The notes below the pieces were generated by a model. That model was not told the DNA's origin. It ran no database searches and worked only from the letters and a program-made list of their open reading frames with translations. Positions 2,967-60,201 of a stretch of DNA of 64,000 bases are shown one piece after another (within the stretch, counting starts at the first letter, position 1; each line of letters begins with the position of its first letter). The translations under genes were made by a program, and so were the position numbers. This DNA comes from an uncultured Bacilli bacterium (GTDB taxonomy: Bacteria; Bacillota_I; Bacilli_A; RF39; UBA660), in assembly GCA_947628535.1 (NCBI GenBank), contig CANRAF010000001.1, positions 93,120 to 157,119 of the forward strand, in the 5' to 3' direction.

Positions 2967-3851
2967 CTACTTATTATAGTTTATTACTTCGAGTATTCTA
3001 TTTAAATCACTATCATTTACATAATTTATTTCTAATTTTTTTGGTTTTATTTTTACTTTTGTTCCAAGATAATCTGATAAATCTCTTTCTAAATGTTCAT
3101 ATTCGTTATTATATTTTCTTTGTACTTTTACTTTTTTTGGTGTATTTTCTTTACTTGTTTCTTCTTCGATTTGTCTTACATTTAGATTTTCTTTAACTAT
3201 TCTGTTTGCAAGAGTTATTATTTGATCTTTATTTTCAAGTTTTGATAGAACTCTAGCATGACTCATACTTAATGATCCTTGTTTTACTAGATTTTTTACT
3301 TCTTCAGGAAGAATAAGAAGTCCAAGCATATTTGTTATATAACTTCTACTTTTTCCTACTCTTTTAGCTAGTTCTTCTTGAGTTAAATTTAAATTTTGCA
3401 TAAGAGTTTGGTAAGCTGTTGCTTCTTCTATAGCATTTAAATTTTCTCTTTGAAGATTTTCAAGAACTGCTATTTCCATCATTTGTCTGTCAGTAAAATC
3501 TCTAATTATACAAGGAATTGTTTCCATTCCTGCGAGTTTTGAAGCTCTATATCTTCTTTCTCCTGCAACTATTTCATAGTCTTTTATACTTTTTTTAACA
3601 ATTATTGGTTGGATTACTCCATGTTCTTTTATAGAAGTTGCTAATTCTTTTATGGACTCTTCATTAAATGTTTTTCTTGGTTGATATGGATTTACTCTAA
3701 GTTTGTTTAATGGAAGATCTGTTACTTCTTCTTTTGTTGATGTTTCCATTATTTTTTCTTCTATTTTGTCATAGTTAATATCTTCAATGTTAAATAATTC
3801 TTCAAGCCCACGACCTAAAGCTCTTCTTTTATTTTGTTCCATTTCCTTCAA
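2967..3851 (-). CDS. parB: Chromosome partitioning protein ParB/Spo0J
   Basis: ParB box (VIQPIIVKK...YEIVAGERRYRASKLAG), HTH (LTQEELAKRVGKSRSYITNMLGLL) and a C-terminal dimerisation domain. Sits next to parA. Confidence 0.9.
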   Translation of the reverse strand: MKEMEQNKRRALGRGLEELFNIEDINYDKIEEKIMETSTKEEVTDLPLNKLRVNPYQPRKTFNEESIKELATSIKEHGVIQPIIVKKSIKDYEIVAGERRYRASKLAGMETIPCIIRDFTDRQMMEIAVLENLQRENLNAIEEATAYQTLMQNLNLTQEELAKRVGKSRSYITNMLGLLILPEEVKNLVKQGSLSMSHARVLSKLENKDQIITLANRIVKENLNVRQIEEETSKENTPKKVKVQRKYNNEYEHLERDLSDYLGTKVKIKPKKLEINYVNDSDLNRILEVINYNK

Positions 3852-6939: not shown

Positions 6940-8785
6940 TTTTACCTCTTTTTAAATATATCATTAAAACTGCGATATCACTTGGATTTACTCCACTTAT
7001 ACGCATAGCTTGGCCTATTGATGTAGGTTTTATTTTTGTTAGTTTTTCACGGGCTTCAAGAGCGAGATTAGATATTTTTTGATAATCTATATTTTCACTT
7101 AGTTTAATATTTTCATATTCTTTTAGTTTTTTTGCTTCTTCTTCTTGCTTTTTTATATAACCTGAATATTTTACTATTATTTCTACTTCTTCAATTACTT
7201 CTTTATCATAATTATTTTTCAAAAATGGTTTTAAATTTTCTATTGTTACTTCTGGTCTTTTTAAAAGATTTTCTAATGTTGTTTTATCTATAATTTTGTT
7301 AATATTATTTTCTTTTAAAATGTTGTTTATTTCTTTTGTTGGAGTAATTTCTTTTGTTAACTCTTTAAGAAGTTTTTTTATGTTTTCTAATTTTATTTTA
7401 AATTTTTGATAATTTTCTTTAGTTACTAGTCCTATTTCATTACCATATTCAGTTAGTCTTAAATCAGCATTATCATCTCTTAAAAGGAGACGATATTCTG
7501 CACGAGATGTAAGAAGTCTGTAAGGCTCTTTTGTCCCTTTTGTTACTAAATCATCTATTAATACTCCAATATAGGCTTCATCTCTTCTTAATATTAATGG
7601 TTTTTTGCCTTTTAGTTTTTGATTTGCATTTATTGCTGCGATTAAACCTTGACATGCTGCTTCTTCATAACCACTTGTTCCATTTATTTGTCCTGCTGTA
7701 AAAAGATTTTCTATTATTTTTGTTTCTAATGTTCTTTTTAACTGAGTTGGATCTATTGCATCATATTCGATTGCATAAGCGTATTTTAAAATTTCTGCAT
7801 TTTCAAGTCCTGGAAGGGATTTTACCATTTCTTTTTGAACTTCTTTGGGCATGCTTGAGGAGAAACCTTGTATATAGATAGTATCTAAATTTTTGCTTTC
7901 TGGCTCTAAAAATAATTGATGGCGTTCTTTATCTTTGAATCTTACTATTTTATCTTCTATTGAGGGACAATAACGTGGCCCTATTCCTTCAGCGTATCCT
8001 CCGTACATAGCTGATTTTGTTAGATTTTTATTAATAATTTCATGTGTTTTTTTGTTTGTATAAATTAAATGACATAATTCTTGCTTTTCTGGGTCATAAT
8101 ATGGTTTATTTTCATAAGAAAAAGTTAAGATATCAGTGTCCCCGGGTTCTCTTTTTGTTTTAGTAAAATCTATTGTATCTTTTTTTATTCTAGGAGGTGT
8201 ACCTGTTTTTAATCTTTGAATAGTAAAACCTAATTCTTTTAAATGTTTGCTTAAATTTAGCTCTGTTTCTTCTCCGTGTGGTCCTTCTTTTTTCTTTGTA
8301 CTTCCTATTAAAATATTTGAATTTAAGTAGGTTCCTGTTGTTAAAATCACTGCTTTTGCTTTTATTTCTTCCTCTTTTGTTATAACTCCCTTTACAACAT
8401 TATTTTCAACTATTAGTTTTTTTACAAATGTCTCTTTTATATCAAGGTTCTTTGTGCTTTTTATAGTTTCTGTCATGTTTTTTTGATATTCTATTTTGTC
8501 TATTTGTGCACGAAGAGCCCAAACAGCTGGCCCTTTTCTGGTATTTAATTTCTTTATTTGAAGAATAGATTTATCAGTATTTTTAGCCATTTCACCTCCG
8601 AGAGCATCTATTTCTCTTACTACAATTCCTTTAGCTGGACCTCCAATTGAGGGATTACATGGAGCATCTGCTATATTATTTATATTTCCTGTTATTAAAA
8701 GAGTTTTATTGCCAAGTCTTGCACTTGCTAAAGCTGCTTCTGATCCTGCATGACCTCCCCCAACAACTATTATGTCATATTTCAT
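6932..8785 (-). CDS. mnmG: tRNA uridine-5-carboxymethylaminomethyl modification enzyme MnmG (GidA)
   Basis: FAD-binding MKYDIIVVGGGHAGSEAALASARLG. The real start is probably the internal ATG at 8785; the ORF track extends to 8842. Confidence 0.9.
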   Translation of the reverse strand: MKYDIIVVGGGHAGSEAALASARLGNKTLLITGNINNIADAPCNPSIGGPAKGIVVREIDALGGEMAKNTDKSILQIKKLNTRKGPAVWALRAQIDKIEYQKNMTETIKSTKNLDIKETFVKKLIVENNVVKGVITKEEEIKAKAVILTTGTYLNSNILIGSTKKKEGPHGEETELNLSKHLKELGFTIQRLKTGTPPRIKKDTIDFTKTKREPGDTDILTFSYENKPYYDPEKQELCHLIYTNKKTHEIINKNLTKSAMYGGYAEGIGPRYCPSIEDKIVRFKDKERHQLFLEPESKNLDTIYIQGFSSSMPKEVQKEMVKSLPGLENAEILKYAYAIEYDAIDPTQLKRTLETKIIENLFTAGQINGTSGYEEAACQGLIAAINANQKLKGKKPLILRRDEAYIGVLIDDLVTKGTKEPYRLLTSRAEYRLLLRDDNADLRLTEYGNEIGLVTKENYQKFKIKLENIKKLLKELTKEITPTKEINNILKENNINKIIDKTTLENLLKRPEVTIENLKPFLKNNYDKEVIEEVEIIVKYSGYIKKQEEEAKKLKEYENIKLSENIDYQKISNLALEAREKLTKIKPTSIGQAMRISGVNPSDIAVLMIYLKRGKNE

Positions 8786-12620: not shown

Positions 12621-12954
12621 TTTTATCTCCTTTTATTTTATTAAAAAGATATATTATCTCTTTTTCTAACTGTTTATAATCTAAATCAATAGTTTCTTTT
12701 TTACATATTATTATATATGTTTCATTTTGTTTATAAATATTTTCATTTTTATCTATTATATTTTTTATTCTTCTTTTTAATTTATTTCTTGTTACAGCAT
12801 TTGCTATGTTTTTGGCAAAAGTAATACCAAATTTTGGAATATTATCTTTATTTTGTTCTTTATTAATTATAAAATATTTACTACTATAGCCTTGTCTTTT
12901 TCTTATTATTCTATTGAAATCTTCTGATTTTTGGACGATATTTTTTTTTTTCAT
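12613..12954 (-). CDS. rnpA: RNase P protein component
   Basis: Basic 113-aa protein (MKKKNIVQKSEDFNRIIRKRQ...). Conserved position between rpmH and yidC. The likely start is the ATG at 12954, which lies inside an A11 run. Confidence 0.85.
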   Translation of the reverse strand: MKKKNIVQKSEDFNRIIRKRQGYSSKYFIINKEQNKDNIPKFGITFAKNIANAVTRNKLKRRIKNIIDKNENIYKQNETYIIICKKETIDLDYKQLEKEIIYLFNKIKGDKNE

Positions 12955-35956: not shown

Positions 35957-36640
35957 ATGGAAATTAAAGAGGATAATCAAAGAAAATTAATACTATCAGT
36001 TTTAGGAGTTGCAATATTAGTAGTTGCAGTAATTGGAATATCATTTGCAATATATCAAGCTACATTTAGTCAAAATGATGCTAATAGTATTCAAACAGGA
36101 ACTATTACTGTTAGTTATACAGAACCTAGTAATGCTATTAGTATTTCTGATGCAATGCCAATGGCTGAAAAAACAGCTCTAAAACAAGATAATAATAAAT
36201 TTGAATTTACTGTTACTACTGGTGCAAGCGGAAGCCTTACAGTACCATATGATATTAGTATTACGAAAATTGAAGAAAGTGATAATAATTTGAATGATGA
36301 AAATGTTAGAGTTTATTTAACAAAAGAGGATGAAACCCCAGTTGACTTAAGTACAAAAGAAGAGTCAAATGCTTTATACAAATCGTCAAATTCAAAATCA
36401 AGGCTTATTTCTGAATTAAATGAATATAGTGGGCGTAAGGAAGAAAAAGCAAAACTTTTATATAGCGCACAAGATGTGTTTAATGGTGATAATTCTGAAA
36501 CAACAAAATCTACAAAGTATGTTCTTAGAATGTGGGTAGATAAGAATTATCCAATGGATAATGGTACTGTTTCAAAAACATATAAAGCTAAAGTAAATGT
36601 TGATTCAGTAGTAACTCCACTTGGAACAAAAACAGAATAA
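35957..36640 (+). CDS. TasA/camelysin-family secreted protein, subtype A, copy 1 (SipW-cognate signal)
   Basis: Signal: K-rich n-region, h-region, then GISFA|IYQ. The mature N-terminus (DANSIQTGTITVSYTEPSNAISISDAMP) aligns with TasA (DATFASGTLDLSAKENSASVNLSNLKP). The C-terminal motif is YVLRMWVDKNY...KTYKAKVNVD. Confidence 0.75.
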   Translation: MEIKEDNQRKLILSVLGVAILVVAVIGISFAIYQATFSQNDANSIQTGTITVSYTEPSNAISISDAMPMAEKTALKQDNNKFEFTVTTGASGSLTVPYDISITKIEESDNNLNDENVRVYLTKEDETPVDLSTKEESNALYKSSNSKSRLISELNEYSGRKEEKAKLLYSAQDVFNGDNSETTKSTKYVLRMWVDKNYPMDNGTVSKTYKAKVNVDSVVTPLGTKTE

Positions 36641-36670
36641 TAGATAATAATGTTATGGAAGGAGAAAACT

Positions 36671-37435
36671 ATGGAAAATAATATAAATGACGATAACAAT
36701 AAAAAAACATTAATATTATCAATTTTGGGAATACTTGTTTTGATAATTGCTGTAGTTGGTGTTTCATTTGCAATGTACAAATTTACAGGAACAGGGACTC
36801 AAGAAAATGTAATTACAACAGGTACTGTCAATATGAGTTTTGATAATGAAGAAGGTAATAATATTTCTCTTACTAACGAATATCCCATGACTGATGAATA
36901 TGCAATACAAAGTAAGGATACTCATAAATCAGAATTTACTATAACTGCTAATTTGTCTGTAGAATCATCAGTTGCTATAGCTTATAGTATAGGAATTGAT
37001 GATCAAAATATAGAAGAAGGGGAAACTTTAAAGAAAGAATATATCAAAATAGCTTTACTTGATGACGATAATAATATATTAGTTGGGACTCCAAATGGAC
37101 TAGATAGTCAAGAATTAACAGGAGGAACTTTAATATCTGAACTTGAATCTCAACAAGATAATTTAATAAATAAATATATGCTTGCTCATAAACTTATTAC
37201 AGGAAGTAATACTTCGGATAAATATACTCTTTATGCATGGGTTGCAGACACTTATAATTTACCTACTGGTAATGACAATAAAGATTCAACTCTTGATGAA
37301 AATGTTATTAAGACTGAAGAAGATGATAAAACAAAGCAAGAAAAGACAACAAAATCTGAAACTTTTAAATTTAAATTAATAGTAAAAGCAAAGCAATTAC
37401 TTGATGAAGAAGAATATGAAGAATATCAACAATAA
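36671..37435 (+). CDS. TasA/camelysin-family secreted protein, subtype B, copy 1
   Basis: Signal ...GVSFA|MYKFTGTG. C-terminal motif YTLYAWVADTYN...ETFKFKLIVKAKQ resembles TasA FSFEATQ. The RBS-supported start is at 36671; the ORF track starts at 36650. Confidence 0.75.
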   Translation: MENNINDDNNKKTLILSILGILVLIIAVVGVSFAMYKFTGTGTQENVITTGTVNMSFDNEEGNNISLTNEYPMTDEYAIQSKDTHKSEFTITANLSVESSVAIAYSIGIDDQNIEEGETLKKEYIKIALLDDDNNILVGTPNGLDSQELTGGTLISELESQQDNLINKYMLAHKLITGSNTSDKYTLYAWVADTYNLPTGNDNKDSTLDENVIKTEEDDKTKQEKTTKSETFKFKLIVKAKQLLDEEEYEEYQQ

Positions 37436-37556
37436 GGAACATTTTTATATTTTAATAAAAAGTAGATAAAGTGAATATTATTTTTTACTTTATACTTCTT
37501 TTTTTATTAATAATTTTAGTATTATTGAAATTGTAAGGTTAAAAAAATATAAAATA

Positions 37557-37585
37557 TTGATTTTTATTCATTTATATTGTACTAT
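37557..37585 (+). promoter_or_regulatory. Sigma-A-like promoter of TasA-like module 2 (duplicate)
   Basis: TTGATT, 17 nt, TACTAT. The flanking sequence is near-identical to the module-1 promoter. Confidence 0.5.
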
Positions 37586-37607
37586 TGGTATAGTAAGGAG
37601 AATAGTG

Positions 37608-38267
37608 ATGGAAATAAAAGAAAATGGTCAAAAAAAATTATTGTTATCAATTTTGGGAGTGGCTATATTAGTTATTGCGGTAATTGGGATATCATTTGCA
37701 ATATATCAAACTACGTTTGATCAAGCAACTGCTAATAGCATTAAAACAGGGACTATTACTGTTAGTTATACAGAACCAAGTAATGCAATTGATATTGAAG
37801 ATGCAATGCCTATGAGTGAAAAAACAGCTTTAGAGACATTAAAGACAAGTAATAAAACATTTGATTTTACAGTTACTACTAAAGCAAGTGGGGAATTGAC
37901 TGTACCATATGAAATTAGCATTACAAAAGTGAGTGGTAGTTCAACTTTAGATGAGCAATATGTAAGAGTTTATTTAGAAAAAAATAATGGACCTGTTACT
38001 CTAATTGGTGAAAACGCAGTTCAAAAGGAAGGATTATATTCGAATCTCATTTCTAATTTAAAGGATTCAACGAAACGTCAAGATGGAACTAAACTTTTAT
38101 ATAGCACTAGTGATACTTTTGATAGTGAAAATAGTACAGCAATAAATACTACATATAAACTTATAATGTGGTTGGATGAAAACTATCAAATGGACAATGA
38201 GACTCAAACAAAAACATATAAAGCCAAGGTAAATGTTGATTCGGCTGTAACTCCAATCGCACAATAA
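37608..38267 (+). CDS. TasA/camelysin-family secreted protein, subtype A, copy 2
   Basis: Paralog of 35957-36640, with the same signal and GISFA|IYQ site. Start at 37608 after RBS GGAG. The ORF-track start at 37557 falls inside the promoter. Confidence 0.75.
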   Translation: MEIKENGQKKLLLSILGVAILVIAVIGISFAIYQTTFDQATANSIKTGTITVSYTEPSNAIDIEDAMPMSEKTALETLKTSNKTFDFTVTTKASGELTVPYEISITKVSGSSTLDEQYVRVYLEKNNGPVTLIGENAVQKEGLYSNLISNLKDSTKRQDGTKLLYSTSDTFDSENSTAINTTYKLIMWLDENYQMDNETQTKTYKAKVNVDSAVTPIAQ

Positions 38268-38305
38268 TAAAAAAATTTTTAAATATATGATGAAAGGAGA
38301 TAAGT

Positions 38306-39046
38306 ATGGAGAATAGTAATAATAAGAAAGTATTAATGTTGTCAATTTTAGGAATAATTGTGTTAATAATTGCAATTGTTGGTGTTTCATTTGCAATGTA
38401 TACTTTTTCGGGAACTGGAACTAAGACAAATGTAATTACAACTGGAACAGTGAATATGAGCTTTGAAAATGGTAAAAATGTTATTAATGTTGATAATCAA
38501 TATCCTATGGAAGATTCAGTGGCAATAACAAAAGAAGAAAATCAAACAAAATTTAGTGTTACTGCAAATTGGGGTTCTGCTCCATTAGCTATAAAATATG
38601 ATATTGGGATTTTGACCCCTTTTACTGAAGGAGATACTTTAAAGGAAAAACATATCAAGATAGCTTTGGTGGATGGTTCAGGGAACATATTGGTCGGGAC
38701 TCAAGAACCAGCTAAAGAAATAGAAGCAGAAAAGCATAATTTGACAGGTGGAACTTTGATGTCAGAACTTAAAAGCCAAAGTGGAGATTTAATAAAAGAA
38801 TATTGGCTTGCTAACGGACTTATTACAAATAGTGGACAAAAGGATGAATATACCCTTTATGCGTGGGTAGATAAGGATTATAATTTGCCTTATGGAGAAA
38901 GCAATGATGATTCTAGTGCTAATGTAGAAGCTCCTAGTACTACTGATGGAAATGATCAAAGTGTTAAACACGAAAAGACTACAAAAAGTGAAACTTTTAG
39001 TTTTAAAATTAAAGTGCAAGCTGAACAATTAATTGACGAAGACTAA
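38306..39046 (+). CDS. TasA/camelysin-family secreted protein, subtype B, copy 2
   Basis: Paralog of 36671-37435 with GVSFA|MYTFSGTG and a C-terminal ETFSFKIKVQAEQ. Confidence 0.75.
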   Translation: MENSNNKKVLMLSILGIIVLIIAIVGVSFAMYTFSGTGTKTNVITTGTVNMSFENGKNVINVDNQYPMEDSVAITKEENQTKFSVTANWGSAPLAIKYDIGILTPFTEGDTLKEKHIKIALVDGSGNILVGTQEPAKEIEAEKHNLTGGTLMSELKSQSGDLIKEYWLANGLITNSGQKDEYTLYAWVDKDYNLPYGESNDDSSANVEAPSTTDGNDQSVKHEKTTKSETFSFKIKVQAEQLIDED

Positions 39047-39199
39047 TAATAGTTTATATTTATAAAAAGTAGATAGAAAAAACATTATGAAAAATTTCGA
39101 TCTACTTTTTTTTAAATAATAATTAATGTCTAATTTTTCCTTTTAAAATATATTATTTTGTGGTAATATATTATTATAAGTTTATAGTAGGTGTTGCTT

Positions 39200-40297
39200 A
39201 TGAATGATGATAAAGAAGAATTAAATATTCAAGAAGAGAAAATAGCAGATGAAGTAGCGGATGAAATACTAACTGTTGAGAATGATGAATATGAACAAAG
39301 ATCTTTTTGGTTTATTGTTTTATTTCTTTTTTGTTTGATATTTTTAGTTTCATCTCTTTCATTTGCAGTGTTTGATACTTATTATAATGGTGAAAGTAAC
39401 AATGTGATTACTGTTGACGTTGATGAAAATGTAACTCAATGTGACAAGAACTGTGATACAGATAATGATGGTATATGTAATTATAACTGTGATATGAATA
39501 ATGATGGTATATGCGATAAAAATTGTGACAATGATAGTGATGGAAAGTGTGACGAAAATTGTGATGATTCTTATAAAAAACCTAGCAATAATTATTATAG
39601 TGTTTGTAAAACTAATTGTGATGTAAATAATAATGGTATATGTAATTATAATTGTGATACAAATAACGATGGTAACTGTGATAAAAACTGCGATACCAAC
39701 AATGATGGAGTATGTGATAAACATTGTGATAGCTCATTTCAAAAGCCAGAATATCCTAATAATCAAGATGGGAATGGTGATGAAGGAAATGATGTGGAAT
39801 CTGGTACTAAGCCACAACCAAGTGAATCAGAAAAACCTGCTTCAGGATCAATATTATTTTCGTTTAATGAAGAATCAAATTATATAAATATGACTGGTGT
39901 ATATCCTACTTCTGATACTATTGGTAAGAAGCTTGTTGGGGATAGACAATATTTTGATTTTAGTATTTCTGCTTCAATGAATAAAAATAAAGGAAATTTA
40001 GTATATGAAATTTCACTTGTACCAATTAGTGAAAATACAATTCCTGAAAATATGGTTAGGGTTTATTTGACTGAAAATGGAAAGGATGTTTCGATACTTG
40101 ATAAAACTATAAATAATTATAGTGAATTACCTAATAGTAAATATAGAAATGGTGGTAAGGTAATTTATAGCAAAAAAATAAGTAAAAATTATAATGGAGA
40201 ATATGTATTTAGAATGTGGCTTTCTTCAAAAGCGCCTGTTTATAATTCTTCAAAGAAATTTGGTGTAAAAATAGCTGTTAATGCATACTACAAATAG
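39200..40297 (+). CDS. Chimeric secreted protein: acidic N-tail, SipW-type signal, two blocks of Cys-containing TSP3-like Ca-binding repeats, and a TasA-like C-terminal half
   Basis: Signal ...SSLSFA|VFDTYY. About seven 12-aa repeats (NYNCDTNNDGNC / DKNCDTNNDGVC; D-x-[DN]-x-D-G loops with two Cys each) at nt 39437-39730. The C-terminus (MVRVYLTENGKDVS...YVFRMWLSSKAP...KKFGVKIAVNA) is paralogous to the TasA-like proteins. Confidence 0.7.
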   Translation: MNDDKEELNIQEEKIADEVADEILTVENDEYEQRSFWFIVLFLFCLIFLVSSLSFAVFDTYYNGESNNVITVDVDENVTQCDKNCDTDNDGICNYNCDMNNDGICDKNCDNDSDGKCDENCDDSYKKPSNNYYSVCKTNCDVNNNGICNYNCDTNNDGNCDKNCDTNNDGVCDKHCDSSFQKPEYPNNQDGNGDEGNDVESGTKPQPSESEKPASGSILFSFNEESNYINMTGVYPTSDTIGKKLVGDRQYFDFSISASMNKNKGNLVYEISLVPISENTIPENMVRVYLTENGKDVSILDKTINNYSELPNSKYRNGGKVIYSKKISKNYNGEYVFRMWLSSKAPVYNSSKKFGVKIAVNAYYK

Positions 40298-40300
40298 TTA

Positions 40301-40954
40301 TTGAAAGGATTGGTTGGTGTGAAAAACATAATTAATAGAATTTTTAAGATTATTTCATCTGCTATTTTTGTTTTGTTAGTGCTTCTAATTATATTAATTA
40401 TTTTTTATATTGTTCGAGTAAATTTTATGGCTAGTAATGACAAATTAGGCGATGTTAGAATCAACTTTTATACTATTTTAACTCAAAGTATGTATCCCAC
40501 TATTAAAGCGGGAGATATAGTTATTACTTATAAATCATTAGATGGAAAATATAATAATGGGGATGTTATCACTTTTGTTTCAGATAATAATGGAGGTATA
40601 ACTGTAACCCATAGAATTGTTGAAGTTTTTAATGTTAATAACAATTATTCTTATAAGACTAAGGGAGATAATAATAATGCTCCTGATAATGATGTTATTT
40701 CTGAAGATCATGTACTGGGGAAAGTTGTTATGAAAATTCCTAAGGTTGGGTATATACAACAATTTTTAGTTAGTAAAACTGGATGGATTGCTGCTGTTAT
40801 ATTACCATGTTTAGGAATAGTTATTTATGATATACTTAAATTGTTTAGACTTGCTGCGAGAAAAGGTAAGAATCTTATTGTTCAAGATAAAAGAACAGAA
40901 GATGCTAGAAAAAGATTAAAAGAGGTGTATGAAGATGAAAGTGAGGAAGAGTGA
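40301..40954 (+). CDS. sipW: Signal peptidase I, SipW type (S26B, archaeal/ER-type)
   Basis: Catalytic Ser box (TILTQSMYPTIKAGDIV) and His box (VTHRIVEV) with a single N-terminal TM helix. The likely start is the GTG at 40319, after RBS AAAGGA. Confidence 0.8.
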   Translation: MKGLVGVKNIINRIFKIISSAIFVLLVLLIILIIFYIVRVNFMASNDKLGDVRINFYTILTQSMYPTIKAGDIVITYKSLDGKYNNGDVITFVSDNNGGITVTHRIVEVFNVNNNYSYKTKGDNNNAPDNDVISEDHVLGKVVMKIPKVGYIQQFLVSKTGWIAAVILPCLGIVIYDILKLFRLAARKGKNLIVQDKRTEDARKRLKEVYEDESEEE

Positions 40955-41570
40955 TTTTGATGTTAGTACAGATGATTTAATGTTTAAGGAAGAAGTTCCA
41001 GAGGGAGATCTTTATAGCAAAGTTAATGTAGATGATAGAATTTTTGAAGATAAGGCCGTTAGGAAGAAGAGAACAACATATTTAATTGTTTTAGCTATTA
41101 TTTTAATTATTTGTTCTATTCTTTGTGCTATTTTTGGGTTTATTTATTTAGATAAACAACTTAAAGATAGAATAAATAATCCAGTGGTAGAAAAATATGA
41201 TTTGTTTGTTGGTCATTCTAATAGTACTTATGGTGGAGAAATTTCTTCATTTGCTAAATATAATAGTGAAAACAGTGCTTTTTCATATAATTTTTATGTA
41301 AGCAATAACAATCCAGTTGATCTTGATTACTCTATTTTACTTGCTAATTTGGATTATGATAATAGTAAAATTGATATGACACTTATACAGTATAGTTTAC
41401 TAAAAGATAATGAAGTAGTAAAAACAGGTTATTTAGAAGATGAAAAAGATAATTTGTTATATGAAGATACTATTAAATCTAATTTTACTGATAATTATAC
41501 TGTTAAACTATGGAGTGATAAACTTTCTAAAAACAACAAATTTAACTTTAAAATCAATATAGGGGTATAA
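40929..41570 (+). CDS. Membrane/secreted protein with a 48-aa cytoplasmic N-tail, SipW-like cleavage motif and a TasA-like C-terminal motif
   Basis: Overlaps the sipW 3' end (translational coupling). TM/signal ...SILCA|IFGF. C-terminal YTVKLWSDKLSKNNKFNFKINIGV resembles the Y.L..W.D...K motif of the paralogs. Confidence 0.6.
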   Translation: MKMKVRKSDFDVSTDDLMFKEEVPEGDLYSKVNVDDRIFEDKAVRKKRTTYLIVLAIILIICSILCAIFGFIYLDKQLKDRINNPVVEKYDLFVGHSNSTYGGEISSFAKYNSENSAFSYNFYVSNNNPVDLDYSILLANLDYDNSKIDMTLIQYSLLKDNEVVKTGYLEDEKDNLLYEDTIKSNFTDNYTVKLWSDKLSKNNKFNFKINIGV

Positions 41571-53219: not shown

Positions 53220-54778
53220 TGAAGAAGAACAATTTATTTAAAGCTGTGGGAATAGTAATTCTAGTTTATATCCTGATGTCTTGGATTGTACCTGTTATTT
53301 ACAATCTTACAGGGGCTGAAGGAGATGTTTCATATCAAATAGGACTTGTTTCTATATTTTCAGTTATTTTAGAAACTTTTTCTGGATTTGGAACAGTTGT
53401 ATTATATGTTCTTTTAGTTGGAGCATTCTATGGAGTGCTTAAAGTAACAGGAGCATATGATAAAGCAATGGGTCTTTTATCAAGTAAGGCAAAAGGTAGA
53501 GAAAAATTAACTCTTATCAGTATAATTATTGGTATGGCAGTTATCTCTTCAGTATCTGGACTTGATCTTGGACTTCTTATTGTTTATCCTATTTTAATCG
53601 GTTTAATAGTTAAAATTGGATATGATAAGTTAGTTGCTCTTAGTGCTACTTTTGGTGCTACTATCGTAGGTATGTATGGTGCTACTTTTGCAGGAACTCT
53701 ATATGGAGTTAATAGTACTATACTAAACCTTGAAACATTTAGCCAAATTTGGGCAAAAATTCTTTTCTTTGTACTAGGTGTGGCAGGACTTATTATTTTA
53801 GTTCTTACATATTCTAAAAAGAATAAACTTGGTACTAAGAAAGTTGTTAAGGCTGATGCAAAAAAGGCTACTACTGTTAAAAAAGAAACAAAGGCAAGTA
53901 GTTCTAAAACAAGTAGTAAAAAAACAAGTTCTAGTAAAACTACAAAAAAAGCAGCTACTAAATCTAGTGCTAAAAATGCAAAACCTGCTAAGGTTAGCGA
54001 AGATGTAAGTACTAGCAAAAAAACTGCTAAAAAAGAAGGTAGTGGAGTTGCTGCACTAATTGTTATTGGAATTTTATTCTTATTAATGTTCTTAGGAACA
54101 ACAAGTTGGGAAAGTATTTTTGGTTCTAATTTATTTGCAACTTTCCATGATAAATGGACTGCATTTACAATAGGTGGATTTGATGTTTTCAATAAGCTAT
54201 TTGGTGGACTTGGAGCATTTGGTACATGGACTGACCCAATGAGATTCCAAACTTATTCAATGCTCTTAATTTTTGCTATGATTGCAATTGCAATTATTTA
54301 TAGAACAAAAATTGCTGATTGTTTTGAAGGTTTTGTTGATGGAATTAAATCATTTGTTGTTCCAGCAATTTTAACTATTCTTGCATGCAGCGTATTTGTA
54401 TTTATTTACTATAACCCAGTAATAACTCCAGTTACAACATTGTTACTTGAAGCAACTGATAAATTTAATGTTGCACTATCTGGAATTTATACTATTATTA
54501 ATAGTGTATTCTATGTTGATTACTATTATTTAGCATATTCAACACTTGCAGGAATGCCTTCATTATATGAAGATGCATCAATTCTATCAATTATTAGTGT
54601 AATGTTTACTAACTTATATTCATTAGTAATGTTAGTTGCTCCAACAAGTGTATTATTACTTGTATCACTTTCTATTAGTGAAGTTAAGTACACTGACTGG
54701 TTTAAATTTATTTGGAAACTTGCTTTAGCATTATTAGTTATTTCATTTATTGTTTTCACTATAATGTTATTAGTATAG
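53220..54778 (+). CDS. YfcC/AbgT-superfamily membrane transporter with a Lys/Ser/Thr-rich low-complexity insertion
   Basis: GTVVLYVLLVGAFYGVLKVTGAYDKAMGLL resembles the YfcC core (GTAVGIIMFMLVIGGAFGIVMRTGTIDNGILAL). Central insert KKVVKADAKKATTVKKETKASSSKTSSKKTSSSKTTKKAATKSSAKNAKPAK. RBS AGGAGGT precedes the ATG at 53220. Confidence 0.5.
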
Positions 54779-54794
54779 TAGACTTAGAAAAAGG

Positions 54795-54822
54795 CACATG
54801 TAGTTGTGCTTTTTTTGTGCTT
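54795..54822 (+). terminator. Rho-independent terminator
   Basis: GCACA-TGTAGT-TGTGC hairpin followed by T7. Confidence 0.6.
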
Positions 54823-54881
54823 TACTAAGAAAAAGAAATGAGTTATAATAAATGTATAAGAAACTAAAGGAGTGAGTCCAA

Positions 54882-57846
54882 ATGAAGAAAATAATGTCTG
54901 GGGGGGGGGTTATATAAAAGAAAAATAAAATATATAACATCTCTAATAATAACAGTAGTAGGACTACTGTCTTTAATGGTGGGAACAAGTTATGCAATAT
55001 TAAAAGGAGAAGCAGAAAGTAAAGAACAGCAAGTAATAAAAGCAGGAAGTGTAGAGTTAGAACTAAAAGAATATTATGAAAGTATGAATAAAGGAATAGA
55101 AGTAAAAGAAGATAAAGATGGATTACTTGGAGAACCATATAAATTTAGTATAAAGAACATAGGAAGTGAAGTAGCAAAATATGATGTAAAACTAGTTAAT
55201 GAAGCAACAGAAAATAAAATACTAGATAAATATATAAAGATAGGTCTAGAAGTCAATGGAGAAGAAATGGGACCAATGAATATAGAAGAAGTAAAGAAAA
55301 TAATAGATAGTAATATAATAAATGAGAAAGAGATAATAAACTATAGTTTAAGGATATGGTTAGATAAGGAACATGAAGAAGAGATATTAAAAATAGAAGA
55401 TGGAAAAGCAATATTGAAAATAGAGGTAGAAGCGAAACAAAGAGAATATGAAGAGAACTTAGATAAAAGTGGGGCAAATAAACCAGTGTTATCAGATTCA
55501 ATGATACCAGTATATTATGATAGTAAGAAAGATGTATGGAAGAAAGCAGACAAAGAAAATAAAGATTATGAATACAAATGGTATGATTACAATAATAAGA
55601 TGTGGGCGAATAGTGTAACATATGATCATACAAAGTTAGCAAATGAAAGCAAAACAAAAATAGAAGGAAAGACATTCAATGGAACAAGTGATTATATAAA
55701 TATGGGATATGCAAATAAAGAATTAGGAAATCAAATAACACTAGTTGCAAGATTTAAGGCAAAGGAAATTAAGAATGCAGTAATAGTTGGAAATGTACAA
55801 CATGCAGGAAGTAATATATATTTAGATAACAATAATTACATAAAGTTTGATATATATTCACAAGAGAATGAACATTATGTTGGAGCAGATTCAAAAATAG
55901 TAGCGGAACCAGACAAATGGTATACAGTGGTAGGAACATATGATGGAGTAACTATGAAGTTATATGTTAATGGAGAATTAAAAGGAACAAAAGAAACAAC
56001 AGATAAAATAAAACCATCACCAATGCCAATAACAATAGGAGCAAATCCAGAGACTAATAATAAATATACAGATTATTTCAGTGGAACAATAAGTGATGCA
56101 TTAGTAATAAAAGATGCAATAGATGAAAATACAATAAAGAAGAATTATTCAGGAGAAGTAAATCATATAGATAACAAAAATCAATTATTCTATTCAAAAT
56201 TTGATAATAAAATAGGAAATATAAATGAAGCACAATATACAAATGAGGGAATGACATTTGATGGAGAAAATGACTATGTAAATGTAGGACTTGCTAATTA
56301 TGACTTTGGAAATAATATAACCCTTGCAGCAAGATTTAAAACAAATTTGTCAAACAATACTTCAAGTCAAGATATAATATCAAACATAGATTCATCAGGA
56401 GCATATATAAATGTGAATTCAAGCAATGTTATAGATTTTGCAGTATATTCACAAATAGAACAAAAATATATCCATACTGATATTACAAAGAAAGCAGATA
56501 AAAATGAGTGGTACACAGTAGTAGGAACATATGACGGAAAAAACATGAGAATATATGTAAATGGAGAGTTAGAAGGTACAGCAGAACTAACAGATGCGAT
56601 AAAGAAAACATATATTCAATATTTAATAGGGGCAAATCCGAATAGAGATAAACATGGAGAATACTTTAACGGAACAATAAGTGATGCATTGATAATGAAG
56701 AATGCATTAACAGACGATGAGGCAATTAAATTAAGTAGAGAAGATAATTTTGATGATTATTCAAAAGATGAAAATACGCTTGTATATAATAATTTAAGAA
56801 GTTACGAATCAAGAGCAAATGGAACAGAAATGCCAATGGATATGATATCAACTATGCAGGTGTGGATACCAAGATTTAATGCAATAACTCCATCAAATTA
56901 TAATGGAGGAACTACGGATAATCCAGGACCAATAAATGTAACATTAAAGAATTCAAATCAAAAATCTTTAGATGCCTTTAACTTTGGAGGAAAAGAACTT
57001 TCTGGATTTTGGGTAGGAAAATTTGAAAATAGCGCACCAAATATCCCAACAAAAGAAGATAATACAGAACAAATAGTAATAGTAAAACCAGATGTACAAT
57101 CATGGCATTGGAGCAATATAAAAACATTCTTTAATTCAATGCAACATATGACTAGTACTGGTAATATATATGGCTTTGATAAAAATACAAGTACAGCCTT
57201 AGATACCCATATGATGAAGAATAGAGAATGGGGAGCAGTAGCATATTTAACGCATAGTAAATATGGATTGTGTAAAAATGCAAAATGTAAAGAAATATAT
57301 AAAAATAATAGTGGTGTTAATTATAATGTTAATAGTAACATTATTAACATAAATCCTCCTTATACAGGAAGAAGTAGTGGAGCACCATCAACAGATAATG
57401 ATTATACTCAATATGGGACATATTCATATGATGGATATAAATTAAATGGCAATAATAAAACATCAGAAAGAGACATAAGTAAAGTAGCAAGTACAACAGG
57501 GAATATATATGGAATATATGATATGAGTGGTGGTTTATGGGAATTTGTAATGGGTAACTATAATAATACAATAGGGCAATCAGGATTTACAGAAGAAGAG
57601 TATAATAGTATAAAAGAAAAATATGTAGATGTATATACTGGAACATCATATGATGGTCATGCTTTAAGTGAAACCGCTGGTTGGTATAATGACTATAAGA
57701 AATTCGTTATCTCTAATTATTCTTGGTTTAATCGTGGTGGCGCATATGTAAATAATAATATAGTTGGTTTGTTTTTCTTTTCTAACATTGGTGGAAATGC
57801 TCACAGGTATGGTGCCTCCCGGCTAATTATCTCAAATATAAAATAA
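54882..57846 (+). CDS. Large secreted surface protein: SipW-type signal, TasA-like N-domain, two LamG/ConA-like domains and an FGE-sulfatase (SUMF1)-like C-domain. Frame-shifted at a poly-G tract (phase-OFF as sequenced).
   Basis: The ATG at 54882 with RBS AAAGGAGTG encodes MKKIMS-(G10). With 9 or 12 G it fuses to the 54976 ORF, giving MKKIMSGGGLYKRKIKYITSLIITVVGLLSLMVGTSYA|ILKGE. TasA-like motif YSLRIWLDKEHEE...ILKIEVEAKQ. LamG blocks at about 55670-56160 and 56250-56730 (WYTVVGTYDG...LYVNGEL). FGE-like motifs REWGAVAYL and IYDMSGGLWEF lie toward the C-terminus (about 57220-57545). Confidence 0.7.
54900..54909 (+). repeat. Homopolymeric G10 tract (candidate slipped-strand phase-variation switch)
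   Basis: Ten consecutive G in a roughly 27% GC window. It lies between the signal-peptide start codon and the body of the 956-aa ORF. A -1 or +2 change in length restores the frame. Confidence 0.85.
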
Positions 57847-57918
57847 TAGGTATTTTTGTTGTTTAAAAATATCTTTTTTTTCTCATTATATGAATAGAAT
57901 AGTAATGGGAGGATAAAT

Positions 57919-60201
57919 ATGTTTTCAAAATTTGATGAAGAAGCAAAGAAAGTACTTATTAATATGCAAAAAGAAATGGTTAGTTTGAAACATCCTTATA
58001 TTGGTAGTGAACATTTACTTTTATCACTATTAAAATATGGAAATAGTGATTATATAAAAAAGTTTAAAAATGTTGGTGTTACATATGATGTGTTTAGAAA
58101 TGAACTTATAAAAGTTGTTGGAATAGGAAAAAGTAAGAATGATTTTTACTTGTACACTCCTCTTCTTAGAAATATTTTAGAGGCTGCGAGTATTGATTCA
58201 AGTGATAAAGGCAAAAAATATGTTGATACAAGTGACCTTTTTTTGGCGCTTTTTGAAGAAGGAGAAGGAGTTGCCATTCGCATTCTCGTAGGAATGGATA
58301 TTGATGTAGATAGTTTATATGACGATTTTTATGTTTCGAAAAAAACAAAAAATGTTAAACTTACTGCTCTTAATTTTGGAACAGATTTAAATAAAAAAAG
58401 TTTAAGTGGAGAAATTGATCCAGTTGTTGGACGAGAAAAGGAAATTTCAAGACTTATGGAGATTTTATCTAGAAGAACTAAAAATAACCCTTTACTTCTC
58501 GGAGAAGCAGGAGTAGGGAAAACTGCTATTGTTGAGGAACTTGCAAGAATGCTTGAAAATTCTAATGTTCCTTCGAAACTTTTAGGAAAAAGAATTATTT
58601 CTGTTTCTATGGCAAGTTTAGTTGCAGGTACTAAATATCGTGGAGAGTTTGAAGAAAGACTTGAAAAAATGATAAGAGAACTTGAAGAGAGTGATGAAGT
58701 AATTTTGTTTATAGATGAAATACATACTTTAGTGGGAGCAGGAGGGGCCGAAGGAGCTATTGATGCTTCAAATATATTAAAACCTGCTTTAGCTAGAGGT
58801 AAAATTAAGCTTATTGGGGCAACAACGACTGCAGAATACAAAGAATTTATTGAAAACGACAGAGCACTTTCTCGCCGATTTCAAACTGTAGTCATAGAAG
58901 AACCTAGTAAAGAGGAGACTAAAGATATCTTAAATAAATTAAGACCAATTTATGAAGAATATCATAAAGTTAAAATAAGTGATGAAGTTATTGATAATAT
59001 AGTTTTGCTTTCGGATAAATATATTTATGATAGAAAAATGCCTGATAAAGCAATTGATGTAATGGATGAAGTTTGTTCAAGAGTATCTGTAACACTTTAT
59101 AAAAAGGATAATATTAATGAAATAATTGATAAATTGTCAGAAGTTAAAAATTTAAAAAATGAATCAATTATAAACAATAATTTTACGGAAGCTTTTTTGT
59201 ATAAAAAAACAGAGATGATTCTTGAAGATAAAAAGAATAAAATGGAACTTAAAAGCGTAAATAAAAATTATAAGAAAGTTAAGATAAGTGATGTACTTAA
59301 AATAATTGAAGAAAAAAGTAAGATACCACTTTATAAAGATAATATAAAAATTACAGAGAAGTTTAAAAATCATGTTTCTAATTTAATTTTGGGGCAAAAT
59401 GATGCTATAAATACTTTGTGTGATGTATTTAAGAAAAGAAATTATTCTACTAAATTTAATAAACCAATGTCATTTTTATTTGTTGGACCTACAGGGGTTG
59501 GAAAAACTTTGCTTGCTAAAGAATATGGAAAATATTTTTATGGAGATAATGTTATAAGAGTTGATATGAGTGAATATAGAGAAGGACACTCTATTAGTAA
59601 AATGATAGGTTCTCCTCCGGGATATGTTGGGTATTCTGATAATAAAAATATTTTTGAATTAGTAAAAGATAATCCATATAGTTTAATTATTTTAGATGAG
59701 ATTGAAAAAGGTAGTAGAGAGGTTATTAATTTATTTTTACAAGTGCTTGATGAAGGAGTTGCTAAAAACAGTAAAGGTGAAAAGGTTAATTTTTCTAATA
59801 CTACAATTATTATGACTTCTAATTTAGGGTGTGATAAGAGTAGTATAGGCTTTAATAATAATGTTAACTATGAGGATATCAATAAATTTTTTGGAATAGA
59901 ATTTGTTAATCGAATAGGAAATATTGTTAAATTTAATAAAATTGGTTTGGACACTTGTAAAAAACTTATTAATAGTAAACTTAATAATATTAGAAAGTTT
60001 TATAAAACTAAAGGAATTGCATGTAGTTTTTCAAATAATTTAATGTCTGAAATTTCTGATCTTTGTGAATATGAAAAATATGGTGCAAGGAAAATAGATG
60101 GAATTATTAGTGAAAAAATAGAGGGAGAAATTATTGATAAAATACTACTTGGGAATGATAAAATTAGAATAGATAACGTTTCAAACGAATTAAAAATTTA
60201 A
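57919..60201 (+). CDS. clpC: ATP-dependent Clp protease ATP-binding subunit ClpC
   Basis: Two Clp_N repeats, AAA-1 (GEAGVGKTAIVEELA) and AAA-2 (GPTGVGKTLLAKE). Length 760 aa. Confidence 0.9.
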   Translation: MFSKFDEEAKKVLINMQKEMVSLKHPYIGSEHLLLSLLKYGNSDYIKKFKNVGVTYDVFRNELIKVVGIGKSKNDFYLYTPLLRNILEAASIDSSDKGKKYVDTSDLFLALFEEGEGVAIRILVGMDIDVDSLYDDFYVSKKTKNVKLTALNFGTDLNKKSLSGEIDPVVGREKEISRLMEILSRRTKNNPLLLGEAGVGKTAIVEELARMLENSNVPSKLLGKRIISVSMASLVAGTKYRGEFEERLEKMIRELEESDEVILFIDEIHTLVGAGGAEGAIDASNILKPALARGKIKLIGATTTAEYKEFIENDRALSRRFQTVVIEEPSKEETKDILNKLRPIYEEYHKVKISDEVIDNIVLLSDKYIYDRKMPDKAIDVMDEVCSRVSVTLYKKDNINEIIDKLSEVKNLKNESIINNNFTEAFLYKKTEMILEDKKNKMELKSVNKNYKKVKISDVLKIIEEKSKIPLYKDNIKITEKFKNHVSNLILGQNDAINTLCDVFKKRNYSTKFNKPMSFLFVGPTGVGKTLLAKEYGKYFYGDNVIRVDMSEYREGHSISKMIGSPPGYVGYSDNKNIFELVKDNPYSLIILDEIEKGSREVINLFLQVLDEGVAKNSKGEKVNFSNTTIIMTSNLGCDKSSIGFNNNVNYEDINKFFGIEFVNRIGNIVKFNKIGLDTCKKLINSKLNNIRKFYKTKGIACSFSNNLMSEISDLCEYEKYGARKIDGIISEKIEGEIIDKILLGNDKIRIDNVSNELKI

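Follow-up and report, generated by a model that had tools for sequence, protein, structure and literature searches.

A stretch of 64,000 nucleotides from an uncultured Bacilli bacterium (assembly GCA_947628535.1, contig CANRAF010000001.1, positions 93,120 to 157,119; the whole stretch is called the window below) carries, from position 54882 on the plus strand, a gene for a large predicted surface protein whose reading frame is broken close to the start codon by a run of ten G residues. It is quite probable, in our view, that slipped-strand mispairing in this G10 tract switches the translation of an exported LamG lectin-like protein reversibly ON and OFF, and that the assembled sequence captures the OFF state. 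The argument is built on the anatomy of the 5' end, the arithmetic of its reading frames, the rarity of the tract, and its recurrence at the homologous position of related genes, with varied lengths and frames and with in-frame and locked alleles.

The leader of the gene (ATG AAG AAA ATA ATG TCT, encoding MKKIMS) runs directly into the G10 homopolymer at 54900-54909 (plus strand), which is followed by GTT ATA TAA. As stated in the original prediction, which was made from the letters of the window alone, the ATG at 54882 has a good ribosome-binding site (AGGAG at 54868-54872), and with ten G the frame ends by codon 12: the product as assembled is MKKIMSGGGVI, with 11 sense codons and TAA as the twelfth. 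In silico edits of the tract also bore out the predicted read-through into the open reading frame (ORF) called at 54976. A tract of G9 gives a 987-amino-acid ORF and one of G12 a 988-amino-acid ORF, both continuous with the 54976 ORF, and G8, G10, G11 and G13 all lead to an early stop within 11-15 codons. The in-frame product reads MKKIMSGGG(G)LYKRKIKYITSLIITVVGLLSLMVGTSYA and continues with ILKG after the predicted cleavage site. All 978 codons 3' of the tract are open, and the ORF has no other lesion. The G run is thereby a 5' coding tract at which the gain or loss of a repeat unit toggles an intact ORF, and this layout of frames is confirmed as an observation.

A tract of this kind is exceptional in the window, which has a GC content of 26.9%. 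Apart from G10, no G or C run in the 64 kb reaches a length of six, the next longest being G5 (n=8), and dinucleotide-preserving shuffles gave an expectation of 0.03 matches by chance for G9, in line with the earlier statement that a G10 run is improbable at this base composition. The tract exceeds the length of at least 7-8 that marks hypermutable mononucleotide G/C tracts, and it stands far above chance.

Several sequencing platforms make errors in long G runs, and the removal of one G restores the frame. The true tract might then be G9 (or G12), the gene intact and its OFF state an artefact of a homopolymer miscall. We regard this explanation as decidedly unlikely. The assembly of the window appears to be of good quality, with dense and intact ORFs despite about 320 A/T runs of six or more. 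Although A/T runs of 6-11 number in the hundreds, none of the other genes in the 64 kb seems to be frameshifted. A paralogue that apparently belongs to the same assembly (P0340, described below) is called in frame, and other out-of-frame tracts of the family come from independent SPAdes and MEGAHIT assemblies. Even a true G9 would remain a slippery contingency tract.

The frameshift could also be fixed and inactivating, without regulatory meaning, as in a decaying pseudogene. Some family copies are clearly decaying (L049-L058, with a degenerate tract and a 1-nucleotide deletion in the WANAV motif), but in the window gene the tract is the sole lesion, the long frame behind it is open, and neither the promoter-like site nor the ribosome-binding site is damaged. 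Moreover, a pure G10 is kept in DNA of 27% GC, where point mutation would soon interrupt it. We therefore consider decay very improbable.

The in-frame reading brings with it a signal peptide of the kind foreseen in the original prediction, with a basic n-region, an h-region and a predicted TSYA cleavage site before I, and the first two elements and SYA are common to all homologues. Seven database proteins that are 46-59% identical in the N-terminal domain all have a basic n-region, a hydrophobic segment and the motif (G/S)(T/S)SYAIL(K/R/N)G; in 17/17 aligned sequences A29 (position -1) and [ST][YF]A are conserved. An AlphaFold2 (AF2) model of the post-tract sequence has a helix at residues 2-24 followed by a beta-sandwich, with a predicted local distance difference test (pLDDT) score of 73.6. 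Because the n-region, h-region and SYA of the homologues are supplied here only by the in-frame reading, sequence comparison indicates that this reading is the real protein. One detail had to be corrected. The tract does not separate the signal peptide from the mature protein, as had been proposed; it lies between the leader and the n-region, 5' of the whole signal peptide.

The ORF called at 54976 has no full signal peptide by itself, as had been noted earlier, its ATG sitting inside the end of the h-region. It is in this form, with 956 amino acids, that the ORF stands in the public record (P0203), which would suit a cytoplasmic protein translated from the internal ATG 54976 or from GTG 54979, the upstream mini-ORF being irrelevant. 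We hold this to be extremely improbable: ATG 54976 is not preceded by a Shine-Dalgarno sequence or other ribosome-binding site, all homologues extend N-terminally through the hydrophobic segment, and an internal start would fall within the conserved signal/anchor segment. In the frame of the ORF a stop is found at 54892, and no usable start follows it before 54976; the only possible one is CTG 54898, about 25 nucleotides from the ribosome-binding site. Two minus-strand ORFs over the site (54770-55138 and 55253-55675) were rejected as antisense artefacts; they are Leu/Phe-rich and without family match. The features of the gene are collected in the following table.

Features of the poly-G gene and its upstream region (positions in the window)
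Feature	Position	Strand	Basis
Hairpin GCACA-TGTAGT-TGTGC, then T7	54794..54816	+	Hairpin scan (listed on the minus strand); T7 follows on the plus strand
Promoter-like TTTACT, 17-nucleotide spacer, TATAAT, 10/12 matches	54821..54849	+	Consensus match only
Shine-Dalgarno sequence AGGAG, 9 nucleotides 5' of ATG	54868..54872	+	Sequence
Start codon and 6-codon leader MKKIMS	54882..54899	+	Sequence; paralogue P0340 starts MKKFMS
OFF-state product MKKIMSGGGVI plus TAA	54882..54917	+	In silico translation
G10, proposed slipped-strand switch; in-frame lengths 9 and 12	54900..54909	+	Sequence, run scan, shuffles
Predicted signal/anchor segment: n-region LYKRKIKY, h-region ITSLIITVVGLLSLMVG, TSYA, predicted cleavage before I (54997)	54910..54996	+	Translation in the ORF frame, AF2 helix, alignment
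ORF as called from the assembled sequence, 956 amino acids, identical to P0203	54976..57846	+	ORF list, database match
N-terminal beta-sandwich, distantly related to SipW-operon proteins; top structural match TasA fibre, weak	55027..55449	+	Sequence comparison, AF2 model
Family-wide conserved segment LDKSGANKP...MIPVYYD...WYDYNNKMWANSVT	55459..55623	+	Alignments
First LamG / concanavalin-A-like domain, approximate limits from motifs	55660..56130	+	Pfam Laminin_G_3, 2 stretches, E 4.4e-42
Second LamG domain	56242..56721	+	Pfam best stretch, residues 429-582
Conserved C-terminal family domain, borderline FGE-sulfatase/PvdO likeness	56776..57843	+	PF03781 22.9 bits against cut-off 23.3; cluster search; weak PDB profile matches

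Two stretches of the protein match LamG (PF13385) with 144.2 bits against a cut-off of 27.6, which places it in this family. The C-terminal domain is less easily assigned. Its match to PF03781 covers a partial stretch and stays below the cut-off, and 0/10 relatives matched this family; among these ten there was no Pfam match except one LamG. Against the PDB the C-terminal family profile gave weak hits (5vf4_A, E 0.022; PvdO, E 0.57), sequence and profile searches of the PDB with the domain gave nothing significant, and the AF2 model (pLDDT 43, 13-sequence alignment) was unusable. The same C-terminal ~356 residues define a large family, with 2905 clusters at 50% identity for E ≤1e-3 and 1807 for E ≤1e-10. 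Exposure at the surface is suggested by the predicted signal peptide, the LamG domains and the prepilin-type N-termini of relatives. Such N-termini were seen in 23 of the 150 best cluster representatives, and 12 of the 150 have GGG(G) within their first 35 residues, where ~3.5 would be expected, a modest enrichment that we take as supportive and not decisive. Since prepilin-type and other N-termini are found on the same C-terminal domain, one conserved domain appears to be joined to different export signals.

In order to compare the locus with its relatives, we used GTDB representative genomes and JGI metagenomes, scanned with 8-mer patterns of the protein. Close orthologues of the window protein were not found in these two collections by the 8-mer scan, which may miss orthologues at 60-80% identity. 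The relatives obtained are 26-51% identical over long segments and 55-74% identical in a few short conserved stretches. They come from metagenome-assembled genomes (MAGs) of uncultured gut Bacilli of Hadza, other humans and rabbit, and there are often several copies per genome. Labels attached to family relatives are "Mycoplasma sp. CAG:611", "Tenericutes" or "Bacilli".

A homopolymer scan of ~0.39 Mb of related loci found 14 G runs of 9-11, of which 13 are distinct (L042 repeats L024), and no long C runs. All of these G runs are on the coding strand, 18-48 nucleotides 3' of a start codon, and lead, in one frame or another, into a long family ORF that opens with a basic stretch and the hydrophobic segment. 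Three further tracts were identified by database-protein look-ups (L047, L048 and L059), including the one with the longest leader, 63 nucleotides from start codon to tract (L047). Counted over the window and the related loci, there are 16 distinct pure tracts: one G9, ten G10 and five G11. Only two of the 16 are in frame (L038 and L047). The 14 others are out of frame, ten of them in need of one G fewer and four of one G more. Most of the tract genes have a Shine-Dalgarno sequence before their start, the exceptions being L007, L015, L022 and the in-frame L038.

Similar contexts can differ in state (G10 and OFF in L022 versus G11 and ON in L047) as well as in length (G11 in L007 versus G10 in L015). 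The sequence downstream of the tract is ~87% identical among L007, L015 and L022 where measured; L047 was matched to L022 only via ~45 nucleotides on each side of the tract. L045 and L046 have GGAGGAGGG where the tract would be, and this encodes the same Gly3 in frame and is non-slippery. Polymorphism of tract length with ON and OFF alleles is thus present at the family level, and the locus nearest to that of the window (L033) lacks the 5' end. This comparison strongly supports the putative switch architecture. Contingency loci would be expected to look like this: some paralogues keep a mutable repeat where it is tolerated, its length varies, and now and then an allele is locked or has decayed.

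The original prediction had asked for the same locus in relatives and had named orthologues that lack the tract as a result that would speak against a switch. Both comparisons were answered in part. Family tracts vary in length, and a tract stands at the homologous site in many family members; on the other side, many members carry no tract, and several points count against switching at the DNA level. No second strain covers the window tract: L033, the sole near-identical contig (99.57% identical), starts mid-gene and is without the tract region. Exact-protein look-ups with the 956-amino-acid ORF, LysS, the transporter from ATG 53219, DnaA (P0083) and P0340 gave nothing on record. The closest N-terminal relatives, P0001-P0007, have no tract. 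OFF states dominate (14/16), an excess compatible with chance (P ~0.06 for at most two ON of 16, when one third is expected to be ON). At two loci, L024/L042 and three L059-type cluster members, G10 is unchanged in every sample.

The OFF excess and the recurrent G10 would also look like a maintained frameshift that is rescued at the RNA level. RNA-polymerase slippage, or ribosomal +1 slippage on GGG-G, would then provide full-length protein constitutively and at a low level from an out-of-frame tract. Transcriptional slippage can occur on runs of 10-11 identical bases, and rescue at the RNA level has been proposed for conserved poly(A) frameshifts in insect endosymbionts. Such rescue would fit the predominance of out-of-frame tracts with G10 as the mode, and the same G10 in independent samples. 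We still think it unlikely as the explanation, although not negligibly so. The correction needed is not uniform, some tracts requiring one G fewer, some one more and two none at all; in-frame and locked in-frame alleles exist; near-paralogues differ in tract length at the DNA level; and the next codon after the tract is GTT, not a stall codon or stop as is usual at programmed +1 sites. RNA rescue and DNA slippage are not mutually exclusive, and both could act together.

Some observations concern the history of individual tracts. Ten samples of one ENA project (L049-L058) contain the L024/L042 gene with a degenerate tract: T-G6-ATG in eight of them (in L055 interrupted further, T-GGTGGG-ATG), T-G7-TG in one and T-G8-TG in one. 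A database protein (P0013) corresponds to T-G9-TG, which is in frame. All ten samples (10/10) share the 1-nucleotide deletion in the WANAV motif, a second frameshift. This is a decaying copy, and its gene call (P0015) starts at an ATG created within the former tract. L037 has tandem family genes at 3786 and 7962, 4.2 kb apart, with identical 5' regions and G11 in both, and the pair is a recent duplication of the leader-tract module.

The nucleotides before the tract are also conserved. In L002, L007, L008, L015, L021, L022, L024, L025, L037, L038, L039, L047 and L048 the tract is preceded by (A/G)TTCG and 3-4 further nucleotides, for example AAATATTCGTCT followed by Gn; in L008 there are 8 nucleotides after (A/G)TTCG, with GGGA interrupting the run. 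The (A/G)TTCG element is conserved even where the proteins are only 30-40% identical, and the window has AATAATGTCT instead. Gene conversion of a 5' cassette, or a requirement for a sequence context, could account for this conservation of the leader. In four genes the first G's of the tract form part of an ATG or TTG, from which gene callers can open the long ORF in the OFF frame, with products starting MGGGQ… or MGGGS… (L025:5833, L039:3836, L024:3074 and L059:6001), and public annotations of the poly-G family therefore hide the frameshift. Gene callers systematically mis-annotate the family, with truncated ORFs or with TTG/ATG starts inside the tract (P0203, P0039, P0206).

An exhaustive search with the C-terminal domain yielded an in-frame relative of the window gene, the most direct evidence that the in-frame reading is the real protein. 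P0340, of 872 amino acids, starts MKKFMSGGGLYKRKIKYITSLIITVVGLLSL; over its first 255 amino acids it shares 93% identity with the repaired window protein, and in the C-terminal part ~40%; it has one LamG domain versus two in the window protein. P0340, P0203 (the window ORF) and P0083 (the window DnaA) are NCBI-only singletons recorded on one 184,597-bp contig. P0340 is not encoded within the window; it is presumably an in-frame paralogue from another part of that contig, with the same leader-Gly3 module. Its mosaic relationship to the window protein suggests that recombination exchanges the variable C-terminal parts and that the N-terminal module in front of them stays common.

In one rabbit-gut genome (MAG Lapin-016 bin43) a different homopolymer accompanies the family. 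Upstream of family genes, runs of T13-T16 lie between -35-like and -10-like hexamers (L004:5764-5776 and 7371-7383; L006:5762-5776 and 7426-7441; L010:7296-7308; L011:913-925; L030:5404-5416). The genes have prepilin-type N-termini (MNKKAFTLIELLAVIVI), and the T run is located between cacTTGCA and GATATTAT(G/A)G, ~40 nucleotides 5' of the ribosome-binding site. Only T15 and T16 give a near-optimal spacer of 16-17 nucleotides. By this layout the run looks like a promoter-spacer poly-T switch, and the variant suggests that the family has repeatedly been placed under repeat-based control.

The original prediction had also assigned the protein to a TasA-family fibre or adhesin and had likened its cleavage site to that of SipW substrates. 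A sipW gene (40301-40954; TIGR02228, 103.7 bits) is located 14 kb upstream of the poly-G gene, and the small secreted proteins encoded beside it have S-F-A at the corresponding site, compared with SYA here. The N-terminal beta-sandwich is collinear with, and weakly similar to, such proteins encoded at 35957-39046 (E 1e-3 and 4e-5). As in the TasA/SipW system of Bacillus subtilis (PDB 8aur), the window encodes SipW, a signal peptidase of the archaeal/ER type, and an S-[FY]-A end of the predicted signal peptide is followed by a beta-sandwich with the TasA fibre as best, though weak, PDB match. Membership in the TasA family itself is not established, as the repaired N-terminus has no Pfam or NCBIfam match to the TasA/camelysin hidden Markov models (Peptidase_M73, TIGR04088), even at E-values up to 1 and up to 10. 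The TasA label is weak, and the earlier interpretation as a whole is partly supported. A TasA-like N-terminal module, perhaps a SipW substrate, seems a reasonable lead.

The sipW operon itself (35957-41570) has sipW flanked by at least five small secreted paralogues with the S-F-A site. These secreted paralogues have no match to TasA or any Pfam family, and one of the operon's paralogues (39191-40297) consists in part of about ten Cys/Asp-rich repeats NCDxNNDGxCDxNCD. A Peptidase_S26 gene beside the L059 relative was also considered as a SipW candidate. It is of the housekeeping bacterial type in an rplS-lepB context, and its position beside the relative was no longer counted as evidence.

The origin region, from dnaA to gyrA, falls within the window, and the gene order is Bacillus-like: metG, tatD, ksgA, yabG, veg, spoVG, yabP, yabQ, divIC, tilS, ftsH, dus and lysS, followed by a transporter gene, the poly-G gene, clpC, gltX and cysS. 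YabG, YabP and (weakly) YabQ point to a lineage with sporulation genes. No rRNA was found in the window, SRP (signal recognition particle) RNA being the only RNA found. Gut metagenomes very often contain relatives of DnaA at 83-87% identity. The hairpin upstream of the poly-G gene probably ends transcription of the DcuC-family transporter gene and isolates the poly-G gene, which, given the hairpin-T7 and the promoter-like site, looks like its own transcription unit. Between its stop and clpC (57847-57918; ATG of clpC at 57919) neither a terminator nor a plus-strand promoter-like site was seen, and clpC might be partly read through from the promoter of the poly-G gene. The genes ctsR-mcsA-mcsB, which usually stand 5' of clpC in Bacillus, are absent here. 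Another long homopolymer is found at the 5' end of an essential gene: rnpA starts with ATG and A11 (12941-12951, minus strand; MKKKN…), in frame. The product of rpmH, upstream of rnpA, is also unusually divergent.

Together, the above observations are consistent with the following sequence of events. The gene would be transcribed from its own promoter, and ribosomes would initiate at ATG 54882. With 9 or 12 G they would translate Gly3 or Gly4, the signal peptide and a mature protein of 950 residues; this product would be exported and probably cut behind SYA, for which the SipW encoded 14 kb upstream is a possible enzyme, and it may be an adhesin or bind glycans. With 10 or 11 G translation would stop after 11 or 15 codons, and the downstream ORF would stay untranslated because it has neither a ribosome-binding site nor a complete signal peptide. 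Slippage during replication would add or remove a G, presumably at high frequency, which would turn the gene ON or OFF reversibly; the assembly shows it OFF. Uncultured gut Bacilli have a large mosaic multigene family to which the gene belongs. The same leader and poly-G module is present in many of its members, and with many members gated in this way each cell would express only a subset of variants.

A wider reading, to which we give slightly less than an even chance, is that the window tract is one example of a phasome, so far undescribed, in uncultured Bacilli that abound in the gut and range from sporulation-gene lineages to RF39/'Tenericutes'-like genomes. The mosaic surface family, whose C-terminal domain is found in at least 2900 clusters (50% identity), would be controlled by a 5' cassette, a short leader often ending in ATTCGNNN plus G9-G11, and elsewhere by promoter-spacer poly-T. 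Export would proceed via interchangeable TasA/SipW-like or prepilin-type N-termini, and paralogues in one genome would share the N-terminal module, differ in their C-terminal domains and be ON or OFF independently. If the tracts switch, abundant gut commensals run a combinatorial surface variation, with immunoglobulin A, phage or glycan-niche pressure as possible drivers, and if the family-wide reading is true, this variation in common human and animal commensals would be of the Mycoplasma/Neisseria style. With this family, the ON/OFF structure of populations could also be measured directly in metagenomic reads that already exist.

Repeat-driven contingency loci are textbook knowledge for Campylobacter, Helicobacter, Neisseria, Haemophilus and Mycoplasma, and phase variation in the gut has mostly been studied via the invertible promoters of Bacteroidales and lately via methylation switches. 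In the searchable literature we found no description of repeat-driven contingency loci in uncultured gut Bacilli. The mechanism is of a known kind; the protein family, the host group and the conserved leader and poly-G module appear to be new.

The closest parallel in the repeat itself is Campylobacter jejuni NCTC11168, with 29 poly-G/poly-C loci with tracts of at least 7 (PMC4965091, PMC6321876). There, too, pure G tracts of ~8-11, typically G9-G11, lie inside surface-related reading frames of a low-GC (~30%) gut organism, the frame sets ON or OFF, and there are several loci per genome. Campylobacter differs in being a Gram-negative epsilonproteobacterium in which mostly glycosylation, capsule and flagellar genes are targeted, whereas the putative switch tracts described here occur in uncultured Bacilli with sporulation genes, in a fixed module right after the 6-20-codon leader of one family.

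In Neisseria, Opa proteins have CTCTT repeats in the region encoding the leader peptide, with slipped-strand switching at ~1e-3 per cell per generation (PMC3960869). As in the predicted layout of the window gene, the repeat stands in 5' coding sequence, within or ahead of the signal peptide of a surface protein of adhesin type, and several paralogues per genome are each ON or OFF independently. The Opa repeat is, however, a pentamer, and the proteins are outer-membrane beta-barrels with no sequence relationship to the window family. Neisseria PilC has a G tract in the signal-peptide region; the tract described here precedes the n-region and is not within the h-region.

Among Firmicutes, a 5' poly(A) frameshift in inlA of Listeria monocytogenes leads to an 8-amino-acid peptide and reverts at ~1000-fold above the point-mutation rate (Orsi et al., 2010, PMC2831843). 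It shares with the window gene a surface protein as product (predicted in the window), the 5' homopolymer frameshift and the very short peptide, and differs from it in being a poly(A) of 7 in a single gene, not conserved in a multigene family and without a G tract. Mycoplasma has variable surface families under homopolymer control, such as Vlp of M. hyorhinis (promoter poly(A)) and P78 of M. fermentans (coding poly(A)). Like the family described here, these are mosaic, recombining multigene surface proteins in Bacilli/Mollicutes with a homopolymer in the promoter spacer or the 5' coding region; several of our relatives are labelled 'Mycoplasma sp. CAG:611' or 'Tenericutes', and in one genome a poly-T lies in the promoter. 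Unlike the gut Bacilli family, with its G tracts, signal-peptide or prepilin-type N-termini and conserved globular C-terminal domain of about 330 amino acids, the Mycoplasma proteins are lipoproteins whose C-termini are repetitive and whose tracts are A/T.

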